UHGV virus genome: UHGV-0344222
DNA from: a virus
Direction: 5' to 3' (one strand)
DNA length: 39,491 nt
Position 1 is the first letter of the stretch. Every line of letters starts with the position of its first letter. The position numbers were made by a program, and so were the translations under genes. A model generated the notes under the pieces. The model was not told the origin of the DNA. It saw only the letters and a list, made by a program, of their open reading frames with translations, and searched no databases. This document shows positions 2,618-39,216 of this stretch, piece by piece.

Positions 2618-2941
2618 CTAGGTAAGAGGAATCGATTTTCCCTTAATTTTCTGGCGTCCACTGCATGTTATGCCGCGTTCGCCAGGCTTGCTGTACCATG
2701 TGCGCTGATTCTTGCGCTCAATACGTTGCAGGTTGCTTTCAATCTGTTTGTGGTATTCAGCCAGCACTGTAAGGTCTATCGGATTTAGTGCGCTTTCTAC
2801 TCGTGATTTCGGTTTGCGATTCAGCGAGAGAATAGGGCGGTTAACTGGTTTTGCGCTTACCCCAACCAACAGGGGATTTGCTGCTTTCCATTGAGCCTGT
2901 TTCTCTGCGCGACGTTCGCGGCGGCGTGTTTGTGCATCCAT
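2618..2941 (-). CDS. N: Antitermination protein N
   Basis: From the ATG at 2941 the protein reads MDAQTRRRERRAEKQAQWKAANPLLVGVSAKPVNRPILS..., matching lambda N (107 aa); the ORF track extends further upstream. Confidence 0.92.
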   Translation of the reverse strand: MDAQTRRRERRAEKQAQWKAANPLLVGVSAKPVNRPILSLNRKPKSRVESALNPIDLTVLAEYHKQIESNLQRIERKNQRTWYSKPGERGITCSGRQKIKGKSIPLT

Positions 2942-3051
2942 CTGGATTCTCCTGCCAGTTAGCTTTGAGTAACGCGCCGTGATGCTTATCTCCACGGTTG
3001 CTGTCTTGCAGCTGCATTTCGCGCTACTCAAAGCCTTCTGCTTTGAATGCT

Positions 3052-3083
3052 GCCCTTCTTCAGGGCTAAATTTTTAAGAGCGT
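3052..3083 (-). promoter_or_regulatory. nutL (boxA CGCTCTTA and boxB GCCCTGAAGAAGGGC on the minus strand)
   Basis: Reverse complement of 3052-3083 gives boxA/boxB upstream of N. Confidence 0.8.
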
Positions 3084-3121
3084 CACCTTCATGGTGGTCA
3101 GTGCGTCCTGCTGATGTGCTT

Positions 3122-3185
3122 AGTATCACCGCTAGTGGTATTTATGTCAACACCGCCAGAGATAATTTATCACCGCAGATGGTTA
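3122..3185 (-). promoter_or_regulatory. pL promoter with operators OL1 (3124-3140), OL2 (3148-3164), OL3 (3169-3185)
   Basis: 17-bp operators recognisable; -35 TTGACA (rc of 3145-3150) and -10 GATACT (rc of 3122-3127). OL1 has one substitution versus reference lambda. Confidence 0.85.
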
Positions 3186-3340
3186 TCTGTATGTTTTTTA
3201 TATAGATTTATTTTTTGCAGGGTTGTGTGGATTGGGAAGGTGATCGAGAGATCTGAATTGCGATGTTTAGTGAGTTGTATCTATTAATTTCCAAATAAAT
3301 ACAATTGGTTATGTGTTCTTGGGTGAGGGGGATCGTGAGG

Positions 3341-3367
3341 CAAAGAAAACCCGGCTCTGTGGCCGGG
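3341..3367 (-). terminator. Rho-independent terminator downstream of the cI operon (t-imm-like)
   Basis: CCCGGC-TCTGTG-GCCGGG hairpin followed on the minus strand by a T-rich run, directly after the stop of the 3376..4137 gene. Confidence 0.6.
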
Positions 3368-3375
3368 AATAACAT

Positions 3376-4137
3376 TTAGGAATCAAGGTCAGGTAGCATG
3401 ATTTTCTCAATCAACGTCAATGCCCTTTGGTCTCGTTCAGCAAAATATTTAGGAGCGTACTGAGGCAGCCACACTTCGTTGAAGTGTTGTTTGAAATCTG
3501 CAAGATATTCGTTTGGGTATAGACGTACCGGGAATGTCCGGCCATCTGGGTACTCATGGTTATATGTTGGGAATGTCTTCGGCTCAACCCCCCGGTTGTC
3601 ACGGAGCCATTGCGAGAAAACCCTACCCTCTGAAATATCAGGGACCATTTTTTCTGGCAGCGTATATCCGGCCTGTTCAAGTGGCGCAACCAAGTTAAAC
3701 GTCAGTTCATTAAGCATAGAAAAGTGCGTATGAGGAACTCTGCCTCGGTTTGTCATATACCGCTTAAGGTGGATAGGGAGTTCGGCAGGCGCTCTTTCAC
3801 CTGACATCCACTCACGCACCCATCTCGATACTTGCACTGCAAATTTTGGAGATAGCCACTGAGCTAAATTAATTGCGATGTCTGGATGAACCCAAGTCCC
3901 TTGATTCTCTGCTCTTCCGCCTTTAAATGATTGAATTAACTCCGATATGGGAATCCCCATATCGCGTGATAATTCATCAAAAAAATCTTGTGTTGTTTTT
4001 AGTCGTGTATAGTCAGCAAGTAGCTTCCCCGCAGACTTGCACATCGCGGTGGCATTGATGTATCCGTCTTTGGTGCGAAGATGGATGACTTCTCCATCAA
4101 CTTCTCTAGCGATTAATGCAAGTTGAAACTGTGTCAT
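3376..4137 (-). CDS. KilA-N domain protein at the rexAB-equivalent locus (BstA-like abortive-infection candidate)
   Basis: 253 aa; N-terminal KilA-N-type motifs (DGYINAT..., GTWVHPDIAINLAQWLSPKFAVQVSRWV); starts 31 bp after the cI stop, same strand, ends at the t-imm-like terminator. Confidence 0.75.
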   Translation of the reverse strand: MTQFQLALIAREVDGEVIHLRTKDGYINATAMCKSAGKLLADYTRLKTTQDFFDELSRDMGIPISELIQSFKGGRAENQGTWVHPDIAINLAQWLSPKFAVQVSRWVREWMSGERAPAELPIHLKRYMTNRGRVPHTHFSMLNELTFNLVAPLEQAGYTLPEKMVPDISEGRVFSQWLRDNRGVEPKTFPTYNHEYPDGRTFPVRLYPNEYLADFKQHFNEVWLPQYAPKYFAERDQRALTLIEKIMLPDLDS

Positions 4138-30725: not shown

Positions 30726-33700
30726 ATGGGTAAAGGCAGCAGTAAAGGGCATACCCCGCGCGAAGCGAAGGACAACCTGAAGTCCACGCAGCTGCTGAGT
30801 GTGATCGATGCCATCAGCGAAGGGCCGGTTGAAGGTCCGGTGGATGGATTAAAAAGCGTGCTGCTGAACAGTACGCCGGTGCTGGACAGTGAGGGGAATA
30901 CCAATATATCCGGCGTCACGGTGGTGTTCCGGGCCGGTGAGCAGGAGCAGACACCGCCGGAGGGATTTGAATCCTCCGGCTCCGAGACGGTGCTCGGTAC
31001 AGAAGTGAAATATGACACGCCGATCACCCGGACCATCACGTCGGCAAACATTGACCGTCTGCGTTTTACTTTCGGCGTGCAGGCACTGGTGGAAACCACC
31101 TCAAAGGGGGACAGGAATCCATCGGAAGTCCGCCTGCTGGTTCAGATACAACGTAACGGTGGCTGGGTGACGGAAAAAGACATCACCATTAAGGGCAAAA
31201 CCACCTCGCAGTATCTGGCCTCGGTGGTGGTGGGTAACCTGCCGCCGCGCCCGTTCAATATCCGGATGCGCAGGATGACGCCGGACAGCACCACAGACCA
31301 GCTGCAGAACAAAACGCTCTGGTCGTCATACACCGAAATCATCGATGTGAAACAGTGCTACCCGAACACGGCACTGGTCGGCGTGCAGGTGGATTCGGAG
31401 CAGTTCGGCAGCCAGCAGGTGAGCCGTAATTATCATCTGCGCGGGCGCATTCTGCAGGTGCCGTCGAACTATAACCCGCAGACGCGGCAATACAGCGGTA
31501 TCTGGGACGGAACGTTTAAGCCAGCATACAGCAACAACATGGCCTGGTGTCTGTGGGATATGCTGACCCATCCGCGCTACGGCATGGGGAAACGTCTTGG
31601 TGCGGCGGATGTGGACAAATGGGCGCTGTATGTCATCGGCCAGCATTGCGATCAGTCGGTGCCGGACGGTTTTGGCGGCACGGAGCCGCGCATCACCTGT
31701 AATGCGTACCTGACCACACAGCGCAAGGCGTGGGATGTGCTCAGTGATTTCTGCTCTGCGATGCGCTGTATGCCGGTATGGAACGGGCAGACGCTGACGT
31801 TCGTGCAGGACCGACCGTCGGATAAGGTGTGGACCTATAACCGCAGTAATGTGGTGATGCCGGATGATGGTGCGCCGTTCCGCTACAGCTTCAGCGCCCT
31901 GAAGGACCGCCATAATGCCGTTGAGGTGAACTGGATTGACCCGAATAACGGCTGGGAGACGGCGACAGAGCTTGTGGAGGACACGCAGGCCATTGCCCGT
32001 TACGGTCGTAACGTCACGAAGATGGATGCTTTTGGCTGTACCAGCCGGGGGCAGGCACACCGCGCCGGGCTGTGGCTGATTAAAACAGAACTGCTGGAAA
32101 CGCAGACCGTGGACTTCAGCGTGGGTGCCGAAGGGCTTCGCCATGTACCGGGCGATGTCATTGAAATCTGCGATGATGACTATGCCGGTATCCGCACCGG
32201 CGGGCGCGTGCTGGCGGTAAACAGCCAGACCCGGACGCTGACGCTCGACCGTGAAATCACGCTGCCATCTTCCGGCACCACGCTGATAAGCCTGGTTGAC
32301 GGGCAGGGGAGTCCGGTCAGCGTGGAGGTTCAGTCCGTCACCGACGGCGTGAAGGTGAAAGTGAGCCGTGTTCCTGACGGCGTTGCTGAATACAGCGTAT
32401 GGGGGCTGAAGCTGCCGACGTTGCGCCAGCGCCTGTTCCGCTGCGTGAGTATCCGTGAGAACGACGACGGCACGTATGCCATCACCGCCGTGCAGCATGT
32501 ACCGGAAAAAGAGGCCATCGTGGATAACGGGGCGCACTTTGACGGCGACCAGAGCGGCACGGTAAATGGTGTCACGCCGCCAGCGGTGCAGCACCTGACC
32601 GCAGAAGTCACCGCAGACAGCGGGGAATACCAGGTGCTGGCCCGCTGGGACACGCCGAAGGTGGTGAAGGGCGTGAGCTTCCTGCTTCGCCTGACCGTGG
32701 CAGCGGATGACGGCCGTGAGCGGCTGGTCAGCACGGCCCGGACGACGGAAACCACTTACCGCTTCACACAACTGGCTCTGGGGAACTACAGGCTGACAGT
32801 CCGGGCAGTAAATGCGTGGGGGCAGCAGGGCGATCCGGCGTCGGTATCGTTCCGGATTGCCGCACCGGCAGCGCCGTCGCGGATTGAGCTGACGCCGGGC
32901 TATTTTCAGATAACCGCCACGCCGCATCTTGCGGTTTATGACCCGACGGTACAGTTTGAGTTCTGGTTCTCGGAAAAACGGATTGCGGATATCAGGCAGG
33001 TTGAAACCAGCGCGCGTTATCTTGGTACGGCACTGTACTGGATAGCCGCCAGTATCAATATCAAACCGGGCCATGATTATTATTTTTACGTTCGCAGTGT
33101 GAACACCGTTGGCAAATCGGCATTCGTGGAGGCTGTCGGTCAGCCGAGTGATGATGCATCAGGCTATCTGGATTTTTTCAAAGGCGAGATAGGGAAAACC
33201 CATCTGGCTCAGGAGCTGTGGACGCAGATTGATAACGGTCAGCTTGCGCCTGACCTGGCTGAAATCAGGACGTCCATTACGGATGTCAGCAATGAAATCA
33301 CACAGACCGTCAATAAGAAACTGGAAGACCAGAGTGCAGCGATCCAGCAGATACAGAAGGTTCAGGTTGATACAAATAATAATCTGAACAGCATGTGGGC
33401 TGTGAAGCTGCAACAGATGAAGGACGGACGCCTTTATATTGCGGGTATCGGTGCCGGTATTGAGAATACGCCAGCAGGAATGCAGAGTCAGGTGCTGCTG
33501 GCGGCAGACAGGATTGCGATGATTAATCCTGCGAATGGCAACACAAAACCGATGTTTGTTGGTCAGGGTGATCAGATATTCATGAATGAAGTGTTCCTGA
33601 AGCGCCTGACGGCCCCCACCATTACCAGCGGCGGCAATCCTCCGGCCTTTTCCCTGACACCGGACGGAAAGCTGACCGCTAAAAATGCGGATATCAGTGG

Positions 33701-34208
33701 CAGTGTGAATGCGAACTCCGGGACGCTCAACAACGTCACGATTAATGAGAACTGTCAGATTAAGGGGAAACTGTCAGCCAATCAGATTGAAGGCGATATT
33801 GTCAAAACGGTCAGCAAGTCTTTCCCCCGCACGAGCACTTATGCCAGTGGCACCATCACGGTAAGAATCAGTGATGATCAGAAATTTGACCGGCAGGTCA
33901 TGATACCGCCAGTGTTATTCCGCGGTGGTAAGCATGAGAATTTCAACAGTAATAACCAACAGTCATACTGGTATTCAACCTGCCGGTTAAGAGTGACCCG
34001 CAATGGTCAGGAGATTTTTAATCAGTCCACGACGGATGCTCAGGGCGTATTTTCCTCCGTTATAGATATGCCTGCCGGACAGGGGACGCTGACACTGACA
34101 TTCACCGTATCTTCATCAGGAGCGAATAACTGGACACCAACAACCAGTATCAGCGATCTGCTGGTTGTGGTGATGAAAAAATCCACAGCAGGTATCAGTA
34201 TCAGCTGA
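30726..34208 (+). CDS. J: Central tail fiber / host-specificity protein J (1160 aa) with divergent C-terminal receptor-binding region
   Basis: N-terminal about 980 aa lambda J-like; C-terminal about 170 aa differ from what I recall of lambda J. Confidence 0.93.
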
Positions 34209-34274
34209 ATTTTATAACCCAGAACGGGCGTCAGAAATGACGCCTTTTTTATTGCAGAAAAGCGAGAGGTAATT

Positions 34275-34874
34275 ATGCGTAAACTTTATGCCGCCATTTT
34301 GTCCGCAGCCATCTGTCTGGCCGTATCCGGTGCGCCTGCATGGGCGTCTGAACATCAGTCCACGCTGAGCGCGGGCTATCTTCATGCCTCGACGAACGTT
34401 TCCGGCAGCGATGATCTGAACGGGATTAACGTGAAATACCGTTATGAGTTTACGGACACGCTGGGAATGGTGACGTCATTCAGCTATGCAGGAGACAAGA
34501 ATCGCCAGCTTACCCGTTACAGCGATACCCGCTGGCATGAAGATTCCGTGCGTAACCGCTGGTTCAGCGTAATGGCGGGGCCGTCTGTGCGCGTGAATGA
34601 ATGGTTCAGCGCGTATGCGATGGCGGGTGTGGCTTACAGCCGTGTGTCGACTTTCTCCGGGGATTATCTCCGCGTAATTGACAACAAGGGGAAAACGCAC
34701 GACGTGCTGACCGGAAGTGATGACGGTCGCCACAGCAACACGTCTCTGGCGTGGGGAGCTGGCGTGCAGTTTAACCCGACCGAATCCGTGGCCATTGATA
34801 TTGCTTATGAAGGCTCCGGCAGTGGTGACTGGCGCACTGACGGTTTCATCGTGGGTGTCGGTTATAAATTCTGA
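34275..34874 (+). CDS. lom: Lom outer-membrane protein (Ail/OmpX family)
   Basis: 199 aa with signal peptide [24 protein letters not shown] and ...[11 protein letters not shown]-terminus. Confidence 0.9.
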
Positions 34875-34932: not shown

Positions 34933-37900
34933 GTGAATATGGCAGTAAAGATTTCAGGTGTACTGAAAGACGGCACAGGAAAACCGGTACAGAACTGCAC
35001 AATCCAGCTGAAAGCAAAACGTAACAGTACCACTGTGGTGGTGAACACGCTGGCCTCAGAAAATCCGGATGAAGCCGGGCGTTACAGCATGGACGTTGAG
35101 TACGGTCAGTACAGCGTTATTCTGTTGGTGGAAGGATTCCCGCCGTCACATGCCGGGACCATCACCGTGTATGAAGATTCTCAACCCGGTACGCTGAATG
35201 ATTTTCTCGGTGCCATGACGGAGGATGATGCCCGTCCGGAGGCACTGCGTCGTTTTGAACTGATGGTGGAAGAGGTGGCGCGTAACGCGTCCGTGGTGGC
35301 ACAGAACACGGCAGCCGCAAAGAAGTCAGCCAGTGATGCCAGCACATCTGCCAGTGAGGCGGCAACCCGTGCGACTGATGCTGCAGATTCAGCACGTGCA
35401 GCCAGCACGTCAGCCGGACAGGCCGCGTCGTCGGCTCAGTCAGCGTCTTCCAGCGCAGGAACGGCATCAACAAAGGCCACTGAAGCCTCAAAAAGTGCTG
35501 CCGCTGCAGAGTCCTCAAAAAGCGCGGCGGCTACCAGTGCCGGTGCGGCGAAAACGTCAGAAACGAATGCGGCAGTGTCAGAACAATCAGCCGCCACTTC
35601 TGCATCCACCGCGACCACGAAAGCGTCAGAAGCTGCCACCTCAGCCAGGGATGCGTCGGCTTCAAAAGAGGCGGCAAAATCATCAGAAACGAACGCATCA
35701 TCAAGCGCCAGTAGTGCAGCTTCCTCGGCAACGGCGGCAGGAAATTCCGCGAAGGCGGCAAAGACGTCTGAGACAAACGCCAGGTCCTCTGAAACGGCAG
35801 CAGCACAGAGTGCCTCCGCAGCAGCAGGCTCAAAAACAGCGGCTGTGTCGTCGGCCAGTGCCGCGTCAACAAGTGCCGGGCAGGCCTCAGCCAGTGCCAC
35901 CGCCGCCGGAAAATCGGCAGAAAGCGCCGCGTCGTCCGCTTCAACAGCCACAACGAAGGCTGGCGAAGCCACTGAACAGGCCAGCGCAGCAGCGAGGTCT
36001 GCTTCCGCAGCGAAGACATCCGAAACGAACGCGAAAGCGTCGGAAACCAACGCAGAATCCTCAAAAACGGCTGCCGCATCGTCCGCCAGTTCGGCGGCGT
36101 CATCGGCATCATCGGCGTCTGCTTCAAAAGATGAGGCGACCAGACAGGCGTCAGCAGCGAGGGGCAGCGCCACGACGGCATCCACGAAGGCGACAGAGGC
36201 TGCTGGCAGTGCGGCAGCGGCAGCACAGAGCAAAAGTACGGCAGAATCCGCAGCAACGCGCGCTGAGACAGCGGCAAAACGGGCAGAGGATATTGCATCC
36301 GCCGTGGCGCTTGAGGATGCGAGCACGACGAAAAAGGGGATAGTACAGCTCAGCAGTGCGACTAACAGCACGTCTGAAACGCTGGCGGCAACGCCAAAGG
36401 CAGTAAAAGCAGCCTATGACAATGCAGAGAAACGTCTGCAGAAAGACCAGAACGGTGCTGATATTCCCGACAAGGACCGCTTCCTGAGTAACATTAATGT
36501 TTACAGCAAAGGTGAAGTGGATCAGAAAAAGGGGATGCGATACGTTGTGGTAAATGCCCCGGCGGGTGTCCAGGAAGGTAAATATTATCCGTTAGTGATA
36601 AAAAGGAATGACAGCCATCGGGCATCCCGCGTTGTCATTTCAACGCCAAGTCGCTTAGCTAATCACAGAATGAATAATTGTGAGTTTAATGGTTTTGTTT
36701 GCGCAGGCGGCTGGACGGACCGGGGTAGCTATGCCTGTGGTATGTTCTGGGCTTATTCATCATCGGAACGCGCTATTCATTCCATTCTGATGAGTAATAA
36801 AGGCGATACCGTAGACAGCGTATTCTATATAGAAGGTGGGGCATTTCCCGTAGAGGTCTTTTTAGAAGAAGGTCTCTCCGTTACTGCACCTGCTTCTGAT
36901 TATATTGTTGCTGAAACGACTTATAAATTTGGCGCAACTGATCCTTATTCTGAATCAGTTGCGGTAAATTTAATTTTAGATTTTAAACAAGGTAATGGAT
37001 TTTATAGTTCGTATCCTGTTTTGAGTAAGTCAGACATTAGCGGGAATAAGATTTACGCTAATGATGAAGTTATTGTCCGTAGTCAGAACGCGTTAAGGAT
37101 GATTGCAGGTGATTACGGTGTCATATGGCGAAATGATGGAGCAAATACTTACTTGCTCATGACTGATAAAGGCGACCAGTACGGTGGCTGGAACGGTCTT
37201 CGACCATTTGCAGTAAATAACGCAACAGGTGAAGTGACGATCAATACACCACTTAATTCTCCTAAGGGGATTAAGGGAAATTCTGATACAGCTACGAAAC
37301 TTCAGACAGCAATAAAAATATCTGGTGTTTCGTTTGATGGTTCTACTGATATCACTTTAACCGCTGCGCATGTTGCTGCTTTTGCCAGAAGAGCAACGGA
37401 TACGTATGCCGATGCGGATGGGGGCGTTCCCTGGAATGCCGAATCAGGCGCTTACAATGTCACTCGCTCTGGCGACAGCTATATTCTGGTTAACTTCTAT
37501 ACCGGAGTCGGAAGTTGCCGGACCTTGCAGATGAAGGCGCATTACAGAAATGGTGGTCTGTTCTACCGTTCTTCAAGAGACGGTTATGGTTTTGAGGAAG
37601 ACTGGGCAGAAGTTTATACCTCGAAAAATCTTCCACCAGAAAGCTACCCAGTCGGCGCACCAATCCCGTGGCCATCAGATACCGTTCCGTCTGGTTATGC
37701 CCTGATGCAGGGGCAGACTTTTGACAAATCTGCTTACCCGAAACTTGCAGCTGCTTATCCGTCAGGCGTGATCCCTGATATGCGTGGCTGGATGATTAAG
37801 GGCAAGCCCGCCAGTGATCGAGCCGTATTGTCTCAGGAACAGGACGGCATTAAATCACACACCCACAGCGCCAGCGTATCCAGTACGGATTTGGGGACGA

Positions 37901-38286
37901 AAACCACATCGTCGTTTGATTACGGCACTAAATCCACGAATAACACTGGTGCGCATACCCATAGTGTTAGCGGTACGGCTGCTTCAGCCGGTGCACATAC
38001 CCATTCGATGACATTTGTTTCAGGTGGTTCCAGTGGTGCTCCGGGAAGTGGAGCATCTGATTATTCTAAATACAGTGTTAACACTTCTTCTGCAGGCGCT
38101 CATACGCACTCTGTATCGGGTACTGCTGCAAGCGCAGGTGCACACGCGCATACTGTCGGTATTGGTGCTCATACGCACTCCGTTGCGATTGGCTCACATG
38201 GACACACCATCACCGTTAACGCTGCTGGTAACGCGGAAAACACCGTCAAAAATATCGCATTTAACTATATTGTGAGGCTTGCATAA
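34933..38286 (+). CDS. stf: Side tail fiber protein Stf (1117 aa) with long Ala/Ser-rich repeat region and His-rich C-terminal repeats
   Basis: N-terminus [26 protein letters not shown]... lambda Stf-like; repeats SAxxAxxSASSA... and [17 protein letters not shown] (twice). Confidence 0.92.
35300..36300 (+). repeat. Intragenic low-complexity tandem repeats (Ala/Ser/Thr-rich) within stf
   Basis: Reiterated GCx-AGC/TCx codon blocks; explains the long spurious ORFs on other frames and the antisense strand. Confidence 0.7.
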
Positions 38287-38861
38287 TGGCATTCAGAATG
38301 AGTGAACAAGCACGGACCATAAAAATTTATAATCTGCTGGCCGGAACTAATGAATTTATTGGTAAAGGTGACGCATATATTCCGCCTCATACAGGTCTGC
38401 CAGCAAACAGTACCGATATTGCACCGCCAGATATTCCGGCTGGCTTTGTGGCTGTTTTCAACAGTGATGAGGCATCGTGGCATCTCGTTGAAGATCATCG
38501 GGGAAAAACCGTCTATGACGTGGCTTCCGGCGACGCGTTATTTATTTCTGAACTTGGCTCGTTACCGGAAAATGTCACCTGGTTATCGCCGGAAGGGGAA
38601 TATCAGAAGTGGAACGGCACAGCCTGGGTGAAGGATACGGAAGCAGAAAAACTGTTCCGGATCCGGGAGGCGGAAGAAACAAAAAACAGCCTGATGCAGG
38701 TAGCCAGTGAGCATATAGCGCCACTTCAGGATGCTGTAGATCTGGAAATTGCAACGGAGGAAGAAATCTCGTTGCTGGAAGCATGGAAAAAGTATCGGGT
38801 ATTGCTGAACCGTGTTGATACGTCAACTTCACAGGATATTGAATGGCCAGCACTGCCGTAG
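38286..38861 (+). CDS. tfa: Tail fiber assembly protein Tfa
   Basis: 191 aa [48 protein letters not shown]... Confidence 0.93.
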
Positions 38862-38958: not shown

Positions 38959-39216
38959 TTATATGTCAGGTGTCTGAAGTTTTGCTTTGGCTCTTAAAAT
39001 GGTTTGCCGCGAGGTTTTGAATTCCCGGGCAATGGCACTTATACTTACACCTGACTTAATTCGTTCGAATACCACCTGTTTCTGTTCTTCATTTAACACA
39101 GGTGGTCGACCAAAACGTTTCCCTGCGCCGCGGGCTCTTACTATCCCGGAATGAGTGCGTTCAAGTAAAAGGTCTCGTTCAAATTCAGCGACTGCTGAAA
39201 TTACTTGCATCATCAT
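38959..39216 (-). pseudogene. 3' fragment of a serine DNA-invertase gene (Pin/Gin/Hin family, C-terminal HTH domain only)
   Basis: [47 protein letters not shown]...; lacks the N-terminal catalytic domain; 5' end replaced by an inverted repeat. Confidence 0.75.

Follow-up and report, generated by a model that had tools for sequence, protein, structure and literature searches.

Two systems with an OmpC-dependent central tail fiber are close relatives of the one described here. Phage phi330 (vB_EcoS_phi330, PV189401.1), a Stx2a siphophage, was tried on a panel of 54 Keio outer-membrane mutants that included lamB732, ompF746 and fhuA766; it lysed lamB732 and 52 others and failed only on ompC768, in which Plac-ompC restored lysis (PMC12502783). 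The second is the A8 gpJ chimera of Eligo, an engineered fusion with which lambda particles deliver in an OmpC-dependent and LamB-independent manner (PMC11338833). With OmpC supplied from a plasmid to MG1655 deleted for ompC and lamB, A8 delivered to 95% of cells and wild-type lambda to 1.9%; A8 was paired in these tests with an LPS-binding lambda-P2 side fiber, and its delivery varied with the OmpC variant supplied (PMC11338833). OmpC is not the same in all E. coli strains, and of 23 variants tried two were used by neither A8 nor 1A2. Structures of A8 gpJ are deposited as PDB 9WCA (closed) and 9WCB (open), the latter released on 2026-01-28 with three OmpC chains under the title 'Open state of A8 gpJ 713 central tail fiber with OmpC G17 from E. 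coli EDL933'. No paper describing 9WCA and 9WCB was found in the literature available to us.

Three lambdoid phages with known receptors provide a wider comparison. Lambda uses LamB (J receptor-binding domain, RBD, in PDB 8XCJ and 8XCK), phage 434 uses OmpC, and phage 21 (OL657228) natively uses LamB and gains OmpC through the single change I1025T (PMC11336670). Mutations at the fiber/RBD junction can alter receptor use in both phage 21 and lambda. The specificity region of J is known as an independently recombining module, for which indel hot spots have been defined (PMC6646904). As cited in 2020, the J of phage 2H10 shares more than 97% identity with that of lambda over 982 residues but 40-60% in the last 150 or so.

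The window discussed here is the whole 39,491-nt stretch of viral DNA, UHGV genome UHGV-0344222. By sequence its J gene encodes a lambda-type tail tip attachment protein (TipJ/gpJ). The NCBIfam profile NF049904 (lambda_TipJ) aligns over residues 1-1160 and scores 2391.7 bits (cut-off 1950). Six Pfam families score above their gathering thresholds (FNIII-A_GpJ, Phage-tail_3, Ig_J, Ig_J_second, Phage_Tail_Tip and Ig_GpJ_C), in the order expected for hub, FNIII/Ig domains, fiber and C-terminal Ig-like RBD. Comparison of the ORFs with the lambda and phage 21 annotations places J 3' of the tail genes H-M-L-K-I and 5' of lom-stf-tfa, and E. coli NZ_CP145707.1 holds an identical J gene (100% nt). Judging solely from the solved lambda gpJ and A8 gpJ structures, J would form a trimer at the tail tip. 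The features are collected in the table, where the domains of the central fiber are named as in the published structure of lambda gpJ (PMC11101478).

Table. Features of the J gene and its 3' flank (window coordinates).
Feature	Position	Strand	Remarks
Gene J (tail tip attachment protein / central tail fiber)	30726..34208	+	Single intact ORF, 1160 aa plus stop
Conserved N-terminal part (aa 1-805; hub, FNIII/Ig domains)	30726..33140	+	Common to lambda, 21, 434 and 2H10
First variable module (aa 806-955; alpha-helical shaft and upper beta-prism)	33141..33590	+	Phage-21/Chlobot type
Linker, 139 nt (aa 956-1001, lower beta-prism)	33591..33729	+	100% identical to lambda DNA
Crossover zone into RBD module	33681-33729	+	3' part of linker
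Receptor-binding module (aa 1002-1160)	33729..34205	+	A8/phi330/2H10 type, OmpC-specific as predicted from sequence
Codon I1025	33798..33800	+	Trimer axis at fiber/RBD junction; conserved here
Loop TSTY (aa 1036-1039)	33831..33842	+	Equivalent to lambda S1012 indel hot spot; 4 aa shorter than lambda
Hairpin, 10 residues (aa 1071-1080)	33936..33965	+	5-aa insertion relative to lambda (hot spot 1048-1049)
Loop AQG (aa 1105-1107)	34038..34046	+	Equivalent to lambda 1076-1078 (hot spot 1077); VSR in phage 21
Hairpin ANNWTP (aa 1133-1138)	34122..34139	+	Equivalent to lambda D1107 loop; 1 aa shorter than lambda
Terminator-like hairpin and T-run	34226..34245	+	Between J stop codon and lom; putative, consensus scan

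Within 33600-34208 there is no ORF of 60 aa or more besides J on either strand, no Rfam family was matched and no promoter-like site was found; repeats there are weak and at chance level only. In phage 21 a terminator is annotated at the position that corresponds to the terminator-like hairpin downstream of J.

Comparison with lambda (NC_001416; J of 1132 aa) and other phages divides J into four segments, with GC contents of 59, 48, 60 and 47% in order. J nt 1-2416 are 95-97% identical to lambda, 21, 434, 2H10 and Chlobot, and residues 1-800 are 98% identical to lambda J. The first variable module is 62% identical to lambda at the DNA level, with 84 gap nt, and 95% identical to phage 21 and Chlobot. 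It is 28 aa longer than its lambda counterpart, and it is this block and not the C-terminus that makes J longer than lambda J. The first-pass annotation, which took J to be lambda-like for most of its length, is thus right for residues 1-800 and overlooked a second divergent block at 806-955. The linker that follows (J nt 2866-3004) has no mismatch to lambda, and the RBD module diverges from J nt 3005 onward (window 33730, codon 1002). Phi330 is nearly identical to the window from J nt 2956 onward. The sharp identity breakpoints and the GC steps support module exchange. Homologous recombination in the conserved part of the beta-prism that precedes it would have brought in the RBD module, which is how host-range cassettes are usually swapped among lambdoid phages.

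The C-terminus is indeed unlike that of lambda, as had been claimed, and the peptides quoted for it are in the ORF. However the divergent region had been placed at 33600-34208, with about 170 residues; the first 130 nt of that interval are lambda sequence and the divergent part has 159 residues. Identity to lambda J is 41% over residues 1011-1160 and 46% (71/154) over residues 1002-1160 in a refined alignment, and the module DNA is 57.6% identical to lambda as against 95.7% for J nt 1-2416, a contrast far beyond chance. In lambda numbering the indels are -4 aa at 1008-1011, +5 aa at 1053/1054 and -1 aa at about 1103. Pfam PF12421 (Ig_GpJ_C) covers residues 1037-1160 (E=5.9e-36), and the lambda and 434 RBDs share with that of the window this family, their position and their context in a trimeric fiber, but differ in loop lengths at the known indel hot spots. 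With indels at three of four loop hot spots this is not a lambda-type LamB-specific RBD that differs by point substitutions in loops of unchanged length. Divergence from lambda does not of itself prove a change of receptor, as phage 21, with an RBD 81% identical to that of the window, uses LamB.

The assignment to OmpC comes from the close relatives. The RBD is identical to that of phi330 in all 159 residues and to that of 2H10 in 157 of 159, with 81% identity to phage 21 and 49% to 434; at the DNA level the module is 99.2% identical to both phi330 and 2H10. All of residues 983-1160 are identical in phi330. The A8 gpJ chimera is identical at 203 of 205 positions over residues 956-1160, the differences being S1037N and T1038S, and the PDB entries for 'A8 gpJ 713' (9wca/9wcb) match J with E=1.9e-173. 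The RBD is thus essentially identical to those of experimentally characterised OmpC-dependent members, and we consider that residues 1002-1160 are very probably an Ig-like RBD of the A8/phi330/2H10 class that docks on OmpC rather than LamB. The suggestion of a different receptor or allele in the first-pass annotation had been drawn from divergence alone; it is well supported by these identities, which the letters by themselves could not reveal. It would have been overturned by normal J variation together with a need for LamB; the C-terminus does lie within natural J variation, since the allele is very common, but LamB dependence is contradicted. An OmpC-type RBD is not new: for identical or near-identical RBDs it is published that OmpC is required and LamB is not, that the C-terminus of J suffices, and how the complex is built.

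The TSTY loop is the sole difference in the RBD from A8 and 2H10, which have TNSY, and its counterpart in phi330 (T918-Y921) is predicted to make no OmpC contact (PMC12502783). Phi330 has exactly the window residues at the positions, 1037 and 1038, that differ in A8. The fiber differs from phi330 upstream of residue 983 and from A8 upstream of residue 956, a reservation given that junction mutations can alter receptor use, although over residues 956-1160 the window agrees with A8 apart from those two positions. The hairpin at residues 1071-1080 corresponds to E953-S962 of phi330, a segment directed into the OmpC barrel in an AlphaFold3 prediction (PMC12502783). Both hairpins predicted to contact OmpC, this one and ANNWTP, are unchanged relative to phi330 (E953-S962 and A1015-P1020), the contacts being those of the AlphaFold3 prediction in PMC12502783. 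Our own single-sequence AlphaFold2 model of residues 956-1160 (mean pLDDT 55.8, pTM 0.48) was too poor for loop mapping, and its Foldseek matches, driven by 99% sequence identity, were used for PDB titles and release dates only.

Infection that needs OmpC and is free of LamB has been demonstrated for phi330 and A8 particles, and by analogy we infer the same for this prophage, which would make infectious particles that behave like them. One could argue that J is a relic in a defective prophage, with an OmpC-type RBD and no functional virion or present receptor function. The right end of the window has a truncated recombinase, and the same J occurs in IS-interrupted form in other genomes. However J is intact over its full length here, and the head-tail module is complete and, over about 24 kb, 96-97% identical to Turner, PhiR30_1, Chlobot and 2H10, all isolated, plaque-forming phages. 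We regard the relic explanation as improbable.

It is considerably less likely still that the allele uses LamB as phage 21 does, its divergence being a second solution to LamB binding. The case for this is the phage 21 RBD itself, which has exact copies of both hairpins and comes from an ancestor that used LamB only. But phi330, with the identical RBD, lyses a lamB knockout and not an ompC knockout, A8 enters lamB-deleted cells only if OmpC is supplied, and a complex of A8 gpJ with OmpC has been solved. Nor is the RBD of the LamB-specific phage 21 type, there being 29 substitutions between them. That the OmpC dependence of the relatives comes from side tail fibers (Stf), with the J tip binding another receptor, is scarcely credible: Ur-lambda Stf does bind OmpC, and the window encodes an Stf (last 213 or so aa 67% identical to lambda) and a Tfa (94% identical to lambda), but A8 particles with the LPS-recognising STF chimera still needed OmpC, the solved complex pairs a gpJ fragment with OmpC, no other non-essential outer-membrane knockout blocked phi330, and in Ur-lambda the binding is dispensable for plaques and loss of OmpC leaves the titre unchanged (PMC12617516), so that an absolute requirement for OmpC points to J. 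A8 amounts in effect to a J-only swap that confers OmpC dependence, comparable to one into lambda PaPa, a phage that lacks side fibers.

With OmpC as the receptor, we can suggest how the particle would dock, by analogy with lambda gpJ on LamB and the solved open state of A8 gpJ with OmpC. The RBD trimer, with which the central tail fiber ends, would meet the trimeric porin, and the likely sequence has four steps: the distal loops of each RBD would insert into or around an OmpC barrel, the RBD bases would spread, the beta-prism fiber would twist and the alpha-helical shaft flip, and the tail tip would open for DNA ejection.

Phi330 has lom downstream of J, as in the window, but it is a Pankowvirus Stx phage with another genome backbone, and the rest of its J is only about 62-84% identical (aa). 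The A8 chimera resembles the window in its lambda-type N-terminal part but has the shorter alpha-helical shaft of lambda. The shaft in the window is of the phage-21 type (+28 aa), and its J is a natural mosaic and not an engineered fusion. The same RBD allele (98-100% aa) is found in 2H10, Turner, Chlobot, PhiR29_2/30_1/70_1, CP-1639 and many lambda-like Stx1a/Stx2a phages. Chlobot has the 1160-aa architecture of the window, with 22 aa differences overall; 2H10 and Turner differ in having the short lambda shaft (1132 aa). We found no receptor data for any of these phages; a literature search on Chlobot, 2H10 and CP-1639 yielded a descriptive mention of 2H10 alone, and in those parts of the SNIPE paper available to us, which uses the PhiR phages, no outer-membrane receptor assignment for them was found. 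A 2026 preprint on receptor prediction concerns the GpJ of Drexlerviridae and not lambdoid RBDs. At 95% nt identity or more, the allele is present in about 27% of complete E. coli genomes, the query being the RBD-only segment without the 130 nt identical to lambda.

The comparison with phage 21 deserves attention. Its J has 1160 aa, the long shaft module (95% nt) and an RBD of the same sub-family, which is 49% identical to that of lambda and has the same pattern of indels relative to lambda as that of the window. The RBD DNA is 75% identical to phage 21 as against 99% to the OmpC-type phages, and the 29 substitutions, all in residues 1011-1160, are concentrated at the TSTY and AQG loops, at the GQGTLT turn and in the strands next to them. 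Phage 21 has both of the predicted OmpC-contact hairpins yet uses LamB, so the published contact model alone fails to explain specificity. With the hairpins identical, the natural LamB/OmpC switch must be encoded among the other 29 substitutions. The two loops, the turn and the strand residues just named are candidates, and it is conceivable, if somewhat doubtful, that a few of these suffice. If so, a pair of 21-type and A8-type RBDs would offer a minimal system, supplied by nature, in which to map the porin switch, and receptor choice might depend on trimer geometry rather than loop contacts.

Beyond this comparison the finding raises no new question; it is real but ordinary. We suggest that in annotation this J be labelled a tail tip protein of the OmpC type and not of the LamB type. 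Its allele is among the most widespread in E. coli, and is found in lambda-like Stx1 and Stx2 phages of O157:H7. Since E. coli in the gut down-regulates lamB, J variants that target OmpC were picked for in-gut base-editing vectors. The receptor chosen by the central fiber sets host range and usefulness as a delivery vector, and it also sets the route to bacterial resistance, through ompC/ompR as against malT/lamB mutations.

[quoted passage not shown] The tape-measure, L, K and I genes lie upstream, and the gene order around J is that of lambda. The head-tail region, 25 kb long, matches those of the temperate phage isolates Turner, PhiR30_1, Chlobot and 2H10 at 96-97% identity, and a copy of J without differences is present in E. 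coli chromosome NZ_CP145707.1. A defective prophage is unlikely; J and the entire morphogenetic module are intact.

We aligned the J protein with those of lambda (1132 aa) and phage 21 (1160 aa), and the J DNA falls into four pieces (see table). The C-terminal divergence from lambda reported in the first-pass annotation is real, in amino acids over residues 1011-1160 and in DNA over 33730-34208, but it starts at codon 1002 (nt 33729), giving a receptor-binding domain (RBD) of 159 residues rather than about 170. The description of J as lambda-like for most of its length is correct for aa 1-800, but overlooks a second divergent block at aa 806-955 (window 33141-33590), and it is there, outside the C-terminal module, that the 28-residue excess over lambda J is found. 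In the lambda gpJ structure (PMC11101478), the alpha-helical shaft and the uppermost part of the beta-prism fiber correspond to this block. It is of phage-21/Chlobot type, with GC of 48% between flanks of 59%, and nested indels in the shaft part of J were noted, unexplained, by Maddamsetti et al. (PMC6646904).

Segments and features of J and of the genes downstream
Feature	Position in J	Window (nt)	Details
J protein segment	aa 1-800		identity 98% lambda, 98% phage 21
J protein segment	aa 801-940		identity 43% lambda, 96% phage 21
J protein segment	aa 941-1010		identity 91% lambda, 91% phage 21
J protein segment	aa 1011-1160		identity 41% lambda, 81% phage 21
J DNA piece	nt 1-2416	30726-33141	95-97% to lambda, 21, 434, 2H10; GC 59%
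J DNA piece	nt 2417-2865	33142-33590	95% to phage 21, Chlobot; 62% to lambda, 84 gap nt; GC 48%
J DNA piece	nt 2866-3004	33591-33729	139 nt, zero mismatches to lambda; GC 60%
J DNA piece	nt 3005-3483	33730-34208	99.2% phi330, 2H10; 75% phage 21; 57.6% lambda; GC 47%
Phage_Tail_Tip	aa 872-1000		Pfam
Ig_GpJ_C, "C-terminal receptor binding domain"	aa 1037-1160		last Pfam domain, E=5.9e-36
Loop TSTY	aa 1036-1039		phi330 T918-Y921
Hairpin [10 protein letters not shown]	aa 1071-1080	33936-33965	phi330 E953-S962
Hairpin ANNWTP	aa 1133-1138	34122-34139	phi330 A1015-P1020
lom		34275..34874	downstream of J
Side tail fiber (stf)		34933..38286	1117 aa; downstream of J
tfa		38286..38861	after stf

Compared with lambda, the C-terminal module carries three indels (lambda residues ~1008-1011, 1053/1054 and ~1103), which coincide with three of the four natural J indel hot spots (1012, 1048-49, 1077-78 and 1107) of Maddamsetti et al. 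2018 (PMC6646904), who also showed the J "specificity region" to be a module that recombines independently. The two divergent modules are separated by 33591-33729, which is 100% lambda DNA, and identity to the J of phage vB_EcoS_phi330 (phi330) starts within it, at 33681. This stretch is probably a homologous-recombination landing pad for swapping RBD cassettes.

With regard to the receptor, the suggestion of a different receptor or allele is supported, and published work of three kinds identifies OmpC as the receptor of J tips identical or nearly identical to this one. The J of phi330 is 100% identical to ours over aa 983-1160, and in spot tests against 54 Keio knockouts of outer-membrane genes, lamB732, ompF746 and fhuA766 among them, phi330 failed on ompC768 only, plaques being restored by chromosomal Plac-ompC (PMC12502783). 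The second is the Eligo A8 gpJ, an OmpC-targeting chimera in which lambda gpJ is fused to the C-terminal part of a naturally occurring gpJ (PMC11338833); the PDB chain "A8 gpJ 713" differs from window aa 956-1160 only by S1037N and T1038S, at which 2H10 is as A8 and phi330 as the window. A8 particles carry a lambda-P2, LPS-binding side fiber, and at MOI 84 delivered to 95% of ompC/lamB-deleted MG1655 cells with plasmid OmpC, against 1.9% for wild-type lambda; 21 of 23 OmpC variants gave efficient delivery with A8, a second chimera 1A2, or both (PMC11338833). These results show that OmpC specificity resides in the J C-terminus alone. The complex has also been solved: PDB 9WCA is the "Closed state of A8 gpJ 713 central tail fiber" and 9WCB the [quoted passage not shown], with three OmpC chains (both released 2026-01-28). 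Attribution of OmpC dependence to the side fibers is contradicted by the P2 fiber of A8, by the gpJ-OmpC complex and by Ur-lambda, whose titres are the same on ompC mutants (PMC12617516). Continued use of LamB by this RBD is contradicted twice: phi330 plates on a lamB knockout, and A8 delivers into cells deleted for lamB.

Divergence from lambda does not in itself predict a receptor change: phage 21 shares the long shaft, its RBD belongs to this sub-family at 81% identity, and its ancestor uses LamB alone (PMC11336670). One substitution in phage 21, I1025T where fiber and RBD join, adds OmpC use, and further J changes add OmpF (PMC11336670); I1025 is conserved in the window J. An AlphaFold3 model of phi330 has OmpC contacted by hairpins E953-S962 and A1015-P1020, with zero contact for the short loop T918-Y921 (PMC12502783). 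Both hairpins are identical in phage 21 and the window (33831-34139 against phage 21 L002:5001-8483), and all 29 RBD differences lie outside them: phage 21 has NGSY in place of the TSTY loop, VSR for the AQG loop and GHGHVT for the GQGTLT turn, and neighbouring strands also differ. As the hairpins are shared with a LamB user, the published contact model leaves the LamB/OmpC difference unexplained.

By analogy with lambda gpJ-LamB (PMC11101478) and the A8 open and closed states, and with sequence identity as the link to this prophage, we infer that the trimeric Ig-like RBD would dock on the OmpC trimer with its distal loops gripping or entering each barrel. The RBD bases would then move apart, the beta-prism twist and the alpha-helical shaft flip, and the tail tip would open last.

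Among neighbouring genes, Stf resembles its lambda counterpart at the N-terminus (81% identity) and over its last ~213 aa (67%, lambda Stf orf-314), which include His-rich GAHTHS repeats; it also has a long repeat region rich in Ala, Ser and Thr. The Tfa proteins of this phage and lambda share 94% identity. Ur-lambda Stf is an OmpC binder, so the side fibers of this phage may target OmpC as well as the central fiber. An Rfam IS009 (RF02111) match at 38629-38827 (+) (221 bits, gathering score 117) is wholly within the tfa coding sequence, and probably stems from the family having been built on prophage tfa-related sequence, not from a separate RNA gene. At 38959-39216 (-) there is a truncated Pin/Hin-type serine recombinase of 85 aa, of which the C-terminal ~33 residues of the resolvase catalytic domain and an HTH_7 domain remain. 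No frame through to the end of the window encodes its N-terminal catalytic part, and the gene appears to be left over from a system for tail-fiber inversion beside tfa. Lom is 47% identical to lambda Lom with a full-length Ail_Lom match, and a terminator-like hairpin and T-run (34226-34245) lies between J and lom, where phage 21 has an annotated terminator.

This C-terminal module is not a rare one. With the 150-aa J tip as query, tblastn gave 243 phage records in discrete allele classes: 44 records at 95% identity or more, 22 at about 81% (phage 21 type), and the remainder at about 76%, about 60% and, with lambda among them, about 42-44%. With the 453 nt RBD alone as query, 1155 records from 5426 complete E. 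coli genomes had at least 99% identity and 336 had 95-99%; ~27% of the genomes carry the allele, O157:H7 strains often in several copies. 2H10, with the same allele, was cited in 2020 as an example of a J >97% identical to lambda over 982 aa and 40-60% in the last ~150. Modular exchange of this region has been on record since 2018; identification of the receptor followed in 2024-2025 and that of the complex in 2026. The first-pass annotation was a correct reading of an ordinary, previously characterised feature, and the value of the finding lies in a refined annotation, that of an OmpC-type J.
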